Assembly (NCBI RefSeq): GCF_053078305.1
Contig: NZ_CP166879.1
Direction: 5' to 3' (one strand)
DNA length: 64,000 nucleotides
A program made the position numbers. This document shows, piece after piece, positions 18,001-21,000 of this stretch. Numbering within the stretch: the first letter of the stretch is position 1; every line of letters begins with the position of its first letter.

Positions 18001-21000
18001 CATTACCGGCAAACCCGGCGGCAATACCATTAGCCATCAGGCAAAGGCCTGTCATATTCTCTGGCGGCGGCAGGTAATCCCATGTCGCCAGAGAAGGTCC
18101 AAGGTTTTTCCCCGGTATTTTGTCCGTGTAACTGAGCACGGATGCATCCAGTTCAGCCACAAGTAAAAAATCCGCTTCTCCTCCACCTGATGCAGAGCGA
18201 TAAATCCGGCGGCGTTTAATACTGGCATTCTGCAATGGCACCGGAGACAGCGTCAGCTGTACCGCAGTCCCCGGAGTACGGAGTGTTACCTCCAGAGACG
18301 CCGGACCTGGCGGACCTTCTTCACCATAATCTGAGACAAAGGTTTCCGTATAAAACCGGGTTTCGTCATCATTCGGGTTATCGTCAGAAACATCACCGCC
18401 CTGCTGAACAGTACAGACAGGTGCTGTCGTCGGCGCGGGGATCCCCAGACGATACGATGATGTCGGGTGATTCCCGTCCCCTTTTGTGGCAATGGTCGCA
18501 TCCGTCACTTTAGGAAAACGCCCGTCAGTGTAGTAAATACGCCCGTGGGAGTCCTGAGCGACCGGACTGCGGATCACATCCACCACATCCGTCCATGCAA
18601 ACCAGAAATCGTCACGGTAATGAAAAATGGTTTTCGGCTTAATCGCGAATGTTTTCTCAGCCTCTGACATCTGGTGTTCAGGCGTGATCACTCCATAGCG
18701 AAAATGACAGTTTTCTGCCAGTACAGCAGAATGATCCGGCAGCATAGATGCAATAACGCCTGGCATCATCCCGCGCATAGTGGTTATATCGATATAAGGC
18801 ATGGTTGTCTGGTATCCGAAAATTTGAATGGCAGGTGAGTCACTGAATTGAGAGTTTAAAGGCGGCATACAACTGCGCCTGTGCAGAATACAGACTTCCT
18901 GAAATCTGAAAAATTACTCTTATCAGAGAAGAGCGTCAGGAACACGATCGGCATCACTGTTTCTGCAAACTTCCCTGTGGCAGTCTTTATTCGCCATATA
19001 ACGTAGCACTAAAGGTCTTCATTAATTTTTCCAGTATAGTTAATACTCCTTGTACCGGGGGTGGTGATACCCCCGCTTTTTTCGTTATCCCTGTTCCCTT
19101 AATCACACTGCCAGGCGCCACAAAACACATCAATTGTGGCTGGTATGGAAACACCAAAAACTCTCACTTCCGGAAATCTGAAAAATTATCCATATCAACA
19201 GGATGCTCTGGAAATGAGACCGGCATCACTTTCAGGATTAACTTTTCCGTGGCACTCTGTATCCGTGTAGGTAAGGTCTCTTCACAATAATTACATAATC
19301 AACGCAGTTCATGGGGGAGGTGATGGCCCCCCATCTTTTTGTCTGTTATTCCTGTGCCCAGCCAACCCTGTATGCCAGTATCTCATCCGCACTGGTCAGC
19401 TTTTCCAGCTCCTTCTTCATGGTGCGCTGCCGGACGTGGATTTCCATCCCTTTGGTGAACATCGCCTGCTCTGCCGCTTCACTCAGTGCTATAAGCTCTT
19501 CTGCTGTCACCGGCACATCATTGTTTTCCGCATCCGTCCAGAAAAACGCCTCCGGCAGTTTCCCCGCTTTCGCTGCCGCCACCGACGGCTCAAGACGCGT
19601 CTGCGTTGACTTCCCGTAGTCCCATTTACGCCCATTGTGCTCAAACGTGTAGTTCGCCGCTTCCATCGCATTACGCCAGGCGTTAATTTCATCGCCCTTC
19701 ATCCCTCGCGCTTTCTCCGCGGTCAGCAGGTCCGTGATTTTCTCCCCGTCAAAACCCCAGCGCCCCGAGATGTCAGCTTTGCGGTTTTCTTCCGTATCCG
19801 CCACCTCCACCACACTCTGGTTCACAGGCCACAGAACTGACGCCACCCTGCTGATGCCGGTAATGACCCCGGCACTGTTATAAACCACCTTCAGCGTCTC
19901 TGCTGAAAATAACGACTGACACTCATACCAGTCCTGACCATCCTCTGATTTCAGGTACATCGCACCCGGCACATCCGGATTTTCCGGCGTGTATTGTCTG
20001 AAATTCTTTATGTGCATCTGTAAGTCCTCCCGGTTACATGTCTGACAGGTGATGCGCTTTATAATGAAAAATACTCACGCCCCGGCGCTCCTGACGACAC
20101 ATACTCACCCACGCTGACTGTACGCCACTGAGAACCATCAAATGTCACCTGAAGCGGCCTGTAAGATACCCTGTCAATAAGGGTTTTGTTTCCGTCGTTG
20201 TAACCGCCAATCCCCGTAATCATCGCACCAATATCCAAATCCACTGCCCATGTAGTGCTGTCTGTTTGCGGCGCATAAGTCTGTTTATTACCCAGCCTGA
20301 TACCCACAACCCGGCTCTTCCCGTCTGATGCCCCGGGCGGCCCCATCGGCCCGGTTTCTCCACGCTCACCTCTGGGACCGGGGTCGCCTTTCTCCCCTTT
20401 CGGTCCCTGCGCTCCCCGCGGACCAGCGGGACCTGTTGCTCCCGTTTCACCTTTCGGACCCTGTGCTCCGGGGTCGCCTTTCTCTCCTTTCGGACCGGGA
20501 ACACCACCTCCTGCTGCAGCCTCTTCTGCCTTTGTTTTCGCTTCATTTGCCACATCCATTGCCGCCTTCACGGCCTTCGGCGTGGCTGCCTTTGTTTCGT
20601 CATTACTGCCAGTATCACTGCTTAACTGCACCACACCTTTCTGCGTCGTGCTGGCATCCCGCTGGCTGACCGTATCCGGTTTGTTTTTTGTGCTGTAATC
20701 CACCCGCCAGTGGAAATACCGTGTGTCGCCGTAAACCGTACAGGTACAGACCGTGCCATTAATAAACCCCGTTGCACCGTATTCGCCAATGGTGACCCGG
20801 ACTATGGCAGCCTCATACGTTCCCATCACCTCAATGACACAGCCACCCAGATTGAGTTTTCCCGGTCCGACATCCGTGATGACTTTATTCATTGACGCAG
20901 GCAGTGATGCCTTCATCATCCAGTAAGGCTGGTCAAATGCCCCTTTTTCTTTCAGCCAGGCAACAAACTCGCGTGTTTTCCATTCACCGGCCCCCGTATG

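Follow-up and report, generated by a model that had tools for sequence, protein, structure and literature searches.

Why does the late operon of a Shiga toxin (Stx)-converting prophage carry, in a gap between two of its tail genes, two similar sequence units that each end in a transcription terminator oriented against the operon itself? The question is raised by a 64,000-nucleotide stretch of Escherichia coli contig NZ_CP166879.1 (RefSeq assembly GCF_053078305.1), hereafter the window, in which positions 18869–19345 separate a DUF4376 gene from an ORF67-like gene, both on the minus strand. A preliminary description, made from the sequence alone, took the units for two short antisense transcripts, possibly paralogous small RNAs (sRNAs) or small open reading frame (ORF) cassettes, or else for a duplicated scar of tail fiber cassette exchange. 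Our analysis indicates that the region is very probably a relic: an ordinary recombination scar with two leftover ends of a phage-borne ykgJ paralog on a swapped tail fiber cassette.

The two units are direct repeats on the plus strand, at 18895–19084 and 19167–19343. In a global alignment they share 134 identical bases, equal to 81% of the aligned columns and to 70.5% of the longer unit, as the preliminary description had estimated (~70%) for tandem units between a tail fiber assembly gene and the next tail gene. Shuffled controls (n = 300) gave a mean of 74 identical bases and a maximum of 111. A repeat search recovered direct repeats of 32 and 13 nucleotides between the units, both at a spacing of 272 nucleotides, and alignment of the units with their flanks (MAFFT) gave a mean column identity of 77%. 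Each unit opens with the 20-nucleotide block CTTCCNGAAATCTGAAAAAT, which occurs exactly twice in the window against zero expected occurrences. The parts of the repeat region are listed here; handles beginning with L denote loci fetched for comparison.

18895–18914, plus strand: first copy of the conserved 20-nucleotide block (CTTCCTGAAATCTGAAAAAT), at the ykgJ stop-codon region and at the left mosaic joint of the cassette.
18910–19055, plus strand: body of trailer 1 ("A-type"), non-coding, which follows an intact ykgJ stop codon in L002, L054, L005 and L017.
19056–19082, plus strand only: predicted intrinsic terminator 1, an 8-bp G/C hairpin (19056–19075) followed by T6 (19077–19082), from terminator scan and folding.
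19083–19165, no strand: linker, whose first ~15 nucleotides (GTTATCCCTGTTCCC) resemble the stop-codon end of DUF4376.
19167–19186, plus strand: second copy of the block (CTTCC...); homology to ykgJ begins one base earlier, at 19166.
19182–19310, plus strand: body of trailer 2 ("B-type"), non-coding, found directly after the ykgJ paralog in L003 and in the C-type relatives L012 and L018.
19311–19340, plus strand only: predicted intrinsic terminator 2, a hairpin (19311–19334) followed by T5 (19336–19340), from terminator scan and folding.

On the plus strand both terminator sites are predicted to form a stable G/C hairpin (8 pairs, −14.9 kcal/mol, for the first; a 7–8-bp stem, −12.2 kcal/mol, for the second) with a U-run directly 3′ of it. 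The hairpins fold equally well on the minus strand (−14.6 and −13.3 kcal/mol), where an A-run precedes each of them and GGUACAAGG or AUGAACUG follows, with no U-run. The scan found zero minus-strand terminators within 18869–19345, and five terminator-like sites in 1 kb where 0.8 were expected. Scan and folding thus bear out the proposal that the two unit-end hairpins are terminators on the plus strand only. Neither is disrupted in any window-like prophage or in the donors described below, and the E-type unit of L005 has a different hairpin sequence in the same orientation and at the same spot. The terminators face against the tail operon because the units are the 3′ ends of a plus-strand gene, the ykgJ paralog.

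This gene is present intact in relatives of the window prophage. In L002 (NCTC9112) a 109-residue plus-strand ORF ends in ...ARAKYGLPEI*, and its last codons and stop codon are the opening block of unit 1; the order of elements there is intact ykgJ paralog, unit 1, linker, unit 2, and a DUF4376 pseudogene. L054 (Z1323MEC0001), which adjoins potB, has an intact paralog and the tandem as in L002. In L012 and L018 an intact paralog is followed by a single unit and a convergent DUF4376 gene, an arrangement that recurs in L003 with a frameshifted paralog. The protein encoded by the intact paralog belongs to the YkgJ family (Pfam PF03692, CxxCxxCC, E = 1.1e-11), and a PADLOC search for a defence function gave no match for it. 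The preliminary description had suggested comparison with related prophages and had allowed that the units might be the degenerate 3′ end of a gene present intact in such relatives; the comparison yielded that gene in L002, L054, L012 and L018, together with the cassette borders given below. Judged by sequence comparison, each unit consists of the last codons of the phage-borne ykgJ paralog, its ~165-nucleotide 3′ trailer and its predicted terminator. On the same alignments the unit boundaries are not placed by chance, since each unit begins at the stop-codon region of a plus-strand gene missing from the window. What the window retains of the coding sequence is 45–46 nucleotides of the paralog 3′ end at one unit and 16 at the other.

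18864–18909, plus strand: ykgJ remnant 1, the last ~15 codons (...NCACAEYRLPEI) with stop codon TGA at 18907–18909, from blastn, translation and alignment with intact genes.
19166–19181, plus strand: ykgJ remnant 2, the last codons LPEI with stop codon TGA at 19179–19181, from translation and homology to intact genes.

The intact ykgJ genes of L002 and L054 match 18864–18909 at 83–84% identity in blastn, and both copies of the block translate in frame as ...LPEI*. Nothing of the ykgJ body or upstream region was found in the window by blastn with the K-12 ecpE–ykgJ intergenic region and ykgJ and with the phage upstream regions. The window copies contain no complete CxxCxxCC ORF and are remnants, not members of the YkgJ family. 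At the DNA level the phage paralog and the chromosomal core gene ykgJ share ~80% identity; the latter has another C-terminus (...GLTPL*) and an unrelated terminator of its own, and it lacks the phage trailer. Ends of prophages in Shiga-toxigenic E. coli (STEC) are known to carry sequence captured from the chromosomal ykgJ/ecpE locus, where it serves as a secondary attachment site, and such prophage sequences were concluded to be of host-chromosome origin (Nakamura et al. 2021, PMC8112680).

Unit-2-like sequence occurs in ~160 of 5426 complete E. coli genomes, often in multiple copies, and in many of these the match starts over a gene that RefSeq lists as a "YkgJ family cysteine cluster protein". 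No O157 or E2348/69 records appear among the matches listed for the unit searches. An exact scan for the 20-nucleotide block in species-representative genomes returned four matches, all due to chance and all in unrelated metagenome-assembled genomes. No representative genome has the element, which is limited to certain strains of E. coli. A metagenome scan returned 25 matches, three of which (L040, L041 and L046) are true homologues. Wherever a lambdoid context was examined, the ykgJ paralog, a unit or both lie at the far end of a long-tailed prophage, between host DNA and the last late gene, DUF4376, which itself follows gpJ, hok and the side tail fiber gene. The units are always convergent with DUF4376, and the host neighbors are yodB, tRNA-Ser/hyaA, ompW, fieF, yfhH/yfhL or potB.

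How sequence from the ends of long-tailed prophages came to lie inside the tail operon of the window is explained by its mosaic structure. The window contains an E. coli prophage at wrbA, whose right end, with integrase, wrbA and agp, matches E. coli chromosomes at 99% identity. Its late region is 97–98% identical to that of short-tailed Stx phages of the 933W/P13374 type (Sepvirinae), and phage phiSTEC1589-Stx1c matches it at 97–98% identity across the whole length of the late region. The stx1A gene (38696–39652, minus strand) is of subtype 1c, scoring 724 bits against the Stx1c model (cut-off 718). When 17000–23500 was compared by local BLAST with all fetched loci, Stx2a phage P13374 matched 17001–18917 (98.6%) and 21107–23013 (99.1%) and left the 2.2 kb between them unmatched. 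The lambdoid ends fill this interval: L053 matches 18911–21210 at 96.6%, L017 matches 18865–21210 at 93.4%, and L024 matches 19166–21210 at 97.1%.

18895–21210, no strand: imported lambdoid cassette, comprising both units, the linker, DUF4376 and the distal ~350 codons of a 787-residue tail fiber gene, from BLAST borders.
21107–21210, no strand: right crossover zone, a tail fiber segment common to the Stx backbone and the lambdoid donor and repeated at 20555–20658, from BLAST.

In a seven-way alignment the window has the single-nucleotide polymorphisms (SNPs) of Stx phages up to 18894 and lambdoid-type sequence beyond, so that the boundary assigned to unit 1 by the preliminary description is a mosaic joint; remnant 1 accordingly carries SNPs typical of the Sepvirinae up to ~18894. 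The corresponding switch of phiSTEC1589-Stx1c is within the block, a few bases beyond the window joint. The left overlap between the two partners is the ykgJ remnant, which P13374-type phages also carry next to ORF67. As read from these borders, a tail fiber cassette of ~2.2 kb is imported from a lambdoid prophage, with its left crossover in a ykgJ remnant common to both partners. The earlier scar interpretation was thus right about tail fiber cassette exchange, to which both the BLAST borders and the SNP switch point, and wrong in making the exchange the cause of the duplication, since the tandem was imported whole.

In P13374 itself (L006, 3570–3736), a ykgJ remnant stands beside ORF67 and is followed by ~100 nucleotides resembling a further-degenerated unit and then by a gp38-like adhesin gene. 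This remnant suggests that the one in the window is older than the cassette swap.

Of 5426 E. coli genomes, 22 have the linker, which separates unit 1 from unit 2 in every locus read. The tandem with its linker is rarer than the single form; since lambdoid prophage ends have it as well as window-like Stx phages, it is older than its arrival in the window phage. Similarity between the units runs ~15 nucleotides beyond each terminator (GTTATCCCTGTTCCC compared with GTTATTCCTGTGCCC; MAFFT) into the stop region of DUF4376, an extent which implies that what was originally repeated comprised the entire intergenic region between the convergent genes. The apparent remnant of a DUF4376 stop region after terminator 1 suggests that the tandem probably arose by recombination between two prophage ends. 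The linker core of ~65 nucleotides had no match outside the tandem modules.

These observations can be assembled into a proposed history. In lambdoid prophages, mostly of Shiga-toxigenic E. coli, the last late gene, DUF4376, would face a convergent accessory gene or "moron", the ykgJ paralog, whose mRNA would run through the ~165-nucleotide trailer and stop at the G/C hairpin and U-run just before the DUF4376 stop codon. The tandem version would have formed earlier, by recombination between two prophage ends. A short-tailed Stx1c phage at wrbA would then have swapped its distal tail fiber and chaperone for the ~2.2-kb lambdoid cassette, crossing over on the right in the shared tail fiber repeat and on the left in the ~50-nucleotide ykgJ remnant beside ORF67. 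The tandem units would have come as passengers, with no gene or recognizable promoter left to serve. On the plus strand they could only stop stray antisense transcription; the late transcript of the minus strand would not be terminated by hairpins without a U-run, and ORF67 and the genes beyond it could still be transcribed.

Several points weigh against regarding the region as a mere relic. Both terminators are still intact in what should be relic copies. The units persist beside DUF4376 in many prophages in which ykgJ is truncated, and this persistence could reflect selection on the trailer or terminator and not mere linkage. For the ~65 nucleotides of linker core, and hence for the event that made the tandem, the sequences compared offered no source. 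The promoter scan (18600–19600) used a crude consensus for sigma-70-type sites only, which weak or alternative promoters could escape. Finally, while the homology, the intact gene of relatives, the cassette borders and the lack of coding and structural signals are shown, how the events followed one another and that the locus now has no function are what we infer from them.

That the units are active plus-strand sRNAs, with promoters of their own or as a 3′-trailer-derived Hfq-dependent family acting in trans or antisense to the late tail transcript, is in our judgment highly doubtful. Each unit does end in a Rho-independent terminator with a U-tail, like Hfq-dependent sRNAs, and the long trailer travels with DUF4376 even where the neighboring ykgJ is truncated. 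In the C-type units (such as L013, L018 and L046), conserved ends surround a hypervariable patch of 24 nucleotides (positions 88–111 after CTTCC), which accounts for 13 of the 23 variable columns and is flanked by the well-conserved TTTTCCGTGGCA and CTTCACAATAATGACATAATCAACGCAG. Prophage anti-sRNAs with variable 5′ regions are comparable (Tree et al. 2014, PMC4104026). The patch may be the result of recombination between B- and C-type trailers. However, no plus-strand promoter-like site was found upstream of the units in the window, L002 or L018, and the upstream flanks vary with context (ORF67 start, linker, ykgJ fragments of various lengths, host DNA), so that no common promoter could have been conserved. 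Rfam 15, searched over the whole window at gathering thresholds, gave nothing at the units, including AgvB, AsxR, Esr41 and STnc100, and a permissive scan of 18700–19500 (E ≤ 10) returned only terminator-driven chance matches (E 2–5). The RNAalifold consensus of 23 distinct copies (−5.6 kcal/mol) comprises the terminator and one weak 4-bp stem only, and with folding z-scores of −1.62 and +0.68 the single sequences are no more stable than shuffled ones. The units are 85–96% conserved to the window, as against 93–99% for the adjoining 345 nucleotides of DUF4376 (the two most diverged loci apart). With no promoter-like site, no Rfam family and only the terminator hairpin conserved, the pair of antisense sRNAs envisaged in the preliminary description finds no support. 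It is extremely improbable that the units encode small proteins, whether a minus-strand ORF of ~38 residues just after DUF4376, as a member of the tail operon (MNCVDYVIIVK...), or plus-strand ORFs of 41–44 codons. The minus-strand ORF is open in five C-type variants, and one plus-strand frame is free of stops over 172 nucleotides in 10 of 10 C-type copies; but the former is intact in only ~5 of 20 variants, the others having stops or frameshifts, and in the window it is reduced to 24 residues in unit 2 and only 11 in unit 1. Its ATG directly follows a stable hairpin, and unit 2 has no Shine–Dalgarno sequence. The plus-strand ORF of unit 2, first described as 50 codons at 19146–19298, actually runs from ATG 19145 (or GTG 19136) to a stop ending at 19270 (41–44 codons), and it lies in a different frame from that of unit 1 relative to the shared sequence. 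Variable columns are distributed over the three codon positions as 7/5/4 among C-type copies and 15/15/10 among B- and C-type copies together, without an excess at the third, and a 1-nucleotide indel that separates A-type (unit-1-type) copies breaks every reading frame; different frames, the absence of codon-position bias and such indels leave the small-ORF cassettes without support. The record of phiSTEC1589-Stx1c has two small minus-strand "hypothetical proteins" inside the units (L007, 3188–3331 and 3365–3529), in frames that are not conserved among relatives, and on this comparison both are probably over-annotations.

The relics might nonetheless be useful in place, either as one-way insulators that keep plus-strand antisense transcription out of the tail fiber genes or, as hairpins on the minus strand, by protecting the tail fiber/DUF4376 message from 3′ exonucleases. 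The intact terminators of window-like prophages and donors, the substitute hairpin of L005 and the equal stability of the minus-strand hairpins all fit such a role, yet we hold it to be rather improbable. To the left of the units there is neither a plus-strand gene (ORF list for 15000–23000) nor a promoter-like site (scan of 18600–19600), and the ORFs of at least 100 residues that were taken as genes in 1–18868 are all on the minus strand. P13374, with the same backbone, has no hairpin-plus-T-run terminator evident at the position of its unit-like stretch by eye, which was inspected and not scanned. Recent transfer, at 96–97% identity to the donors, explains the retention of the terminators equally well. 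A further proposal, compatible with the relic interpretation, is that the 20–25-nucleotide block at the ykgJ stop codon (ACTTCCGGAAATCTGAAAAATTAC) acts as a recombination hotspot or boundary sequence beyond the passive homology that it provides. We consider this unlikely, though several independent joints do fall in the block or at its edges: the window joint at 18894/18895, that of phiSTEC1589-Stx1c inside the block, the joint of linker and unit 2 at 19166, that of L053 at AAATTAC, and that of P13374, which diverges after ...AAAAATTAC (joint coordinates 18895–18917 and 19166–19186 in the window, 2995–3010 in L053 and ~3095–3120 in L007). The block also contains an 8-nucleotide palindrome, TTCCGGAA. 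However, it encodes the conserved C-terminus and is the best-conserved stretch between the diverged units, where exchanges and homology limits would cluster anyway; the clustering is probably a homology effect. An invertase crossover site of the gix/hix kind was considered since tail fiber cassettes are often invertible. A site of the Gin/Hin/Pin family has two inverted 12-bp half-sites within 26 bp; two such sites occur in opposite orientation, and the invertase gene is close by. In the block, only the left half resembles what we take to be the gix/hix consensus (8–9 of 12 positions); the right half is not its inverted repeat. This candidate was rejected, as inspection of the sequence showed no inverted second half-site and both copies are direct. 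No invertase-like gene was found in the window by tblastn, a weak negative given that the Pin query was approximate. Joint clustering, the hypervariable patch and the kept terminators leave a small opening, with no positive support, for something more: there is a slight chance that the trailer represents an undescribed family of regulatory RNAs derived from 3′ ends, whose relics would be made from cryptic promoters and act on the tail fiber/DUF4376 message or on host targets, or else that the 20–25-nucleotide block is a hotspot for the transfer of tail fiber cassettes from long-tailed lambdoid prophages to short-tailed Stx phages. Either of these, a trailer-derived sRNA family or a dedicated hotspot, would, if true, make the locus moderately interesting to those who study phages and sRNAs.

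The relic interpretation places the locus among several known systems without making it identical to any of them. Lambdoid phages are said to exchange modules at short shared sequences, which Clark and colleagues reportedly termed "boundary sequences" in 2001. Like lambdoid mosaic joints, the locus changes its closest relatives abruptly at a short sequence that the partners share, and presumably non-functional fragments of a neighboring gene have travelled with the module, which recurs in backbones as unrelated as those of long-tailed lambdoid prophages and a short-tailed Stx phage. It differs in that the shared sequence is the 3′ end of an accessory ykgJ paralog and not an intergenic linker, and in that two 3′ trailers in tandem, both with their terminators intact, form the passenger. 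The Rho-independent terminators of convergent gene pairs likewise have a G/C hairpin and a U-run between the genes, immediately before the stop codon of the partner; in the window, however, the terminated gene is gone, and two terminators stand in series and act in one direction only. With the attB-in-PP_2 element (Nakamura et al. 2021, PMC8112680) the locus shares the captured ykgJ locus and a prophage end beside tail fiber genes. The published element, however, is homologous over 96 bp to the ecpE–ykgJ intergenic stretch upstream of ykgJ and offers other phages a site of attachment; blastn found none of it in the window.

Prophage-encoded, Hfq-dependent sRNAs such as AgvB/AsxR, PasA–D and STnc100 resemble the units in their prophage location, their orientation against the late genes, their U-tailed terminator and the presence of several diverged copies per genome. 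Unlike the units, they are backed by a mapped promoter or an Rfam model, and most of them map to the Q/stx/lysis region, with PasB among phage structural genes. The Pas and AgvB/AsxR sRNAs are located elsewhere in the prophage (Zhu et al. 2026; Tree et al. 2014, PMC4104026). PasB was tried as an identity for the tandem pair and rejected, as PasB copies are never less than 28 kb apart; this sets the two apart by spacing and not by sequence. STnc100 matched the window at 37.8–38.3 kb and not at 18.9–19.3 kb.

Three minus-strand genes surround the repeat region, in which all sizeable ORFs near the units are on that strand.

17177–18868, minus strand: ORF67-like "internal virion protein" gene (phrog_511), the first backbone gene past the scar.
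19346–20017, minus strand: DUF4376 gene, 223 residues, tail fiber- or tail fiber assembly-like, from RefSeq annotation of homologues and phrog_11571 (4.7e-151).
20059–22422, minus strand: 787-residue tail fiber gene, from the ORF list.

The stop codon of DUF4376 (19346–19348) is abutted by terminator 2. The N-terminal part of its product resembles phrog_136 (tail fiber assembly protein), and its 3′ end also matches P-Eib phage fragments. The tail fiber gene contains an internal repeat of ~104 nucleotides (20555–20658 and 21107–21210, 80% identity). What the preliminary description called the next tail gene is present, but is the ORF67-like gene, with a start that is probably ATG 18802. The ORF opens at ATG 18868 (563 residues), whereas RefSeq annotates 541 residues and homologues in E. 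coli, Salmonella and Citrobacter have 541–560, which favors the start at 18802 (541 residues); the CAT of the apparent start at 18868 aligns with ...GAGGCATGTAAC of intact ykgJ. With a start at 18802 the non-coding gap would be 18803–19345, and the 5′ leader of ORF67 would cross the ykgJ remnant. ORF67 covers only positions 315–859 of the 862-residue phrog_511 profile, from which it could be taken for a larger gene truncated by the cassette; this was rejected, as the homologues are uniformly of 541–560 residues.

Elsewhere in the prophage, a minus-strand ORF of 2808 residues (487–8913) lies at the distal end. Profiles assigned it no function, its sole NCBIfam match being a CLCA_X-like domain (residues 1195–1450) at 150 bits, under the cut-off of 260 bits. 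A YadA/BimA-like (Eib-like) trimeric autotransporter gene of 408 residues (12188–13414, minus strand) is found in the accessory region downstream of lom/hok-type genes. Two full-length STnc100 matches stand in tandem just downstream of the Shiga toxin 1 operon (37847–38060 and 38122–38333, minus strand; 199 and 139 bits, gathering score 47) and form an Rfam-supported counterpart of the pair suspected at 18.9 kb; STnc100 is related to PasD (Zhu et al. 2026). Other RNA matches are sRNA-Xcc1 (48757–48845, plus strand, 66 bits) and, in the early region, isrK (57728–57801, plus strand, 53 bits) directly followed by C4 antisense RNA (57827–57910, plus strand, 70 bits).

The scar would explain the odd gap of 540 nucleotides in the tail operon of this Stx1c-converting phage, and it argues against annotating sRNAs or small "hypothetical proteins", as one GenBank record does, in the gap. 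It also offers a base-by-base record of a short-tailed Stx phage taking its distal tail fiber and chaperone from a long-tailed lambdoid prophage. The homology arm of this exchange would be a fragment of a captured host gene, ykgJ, and the finding thus bears on how Stx phages change their host range.

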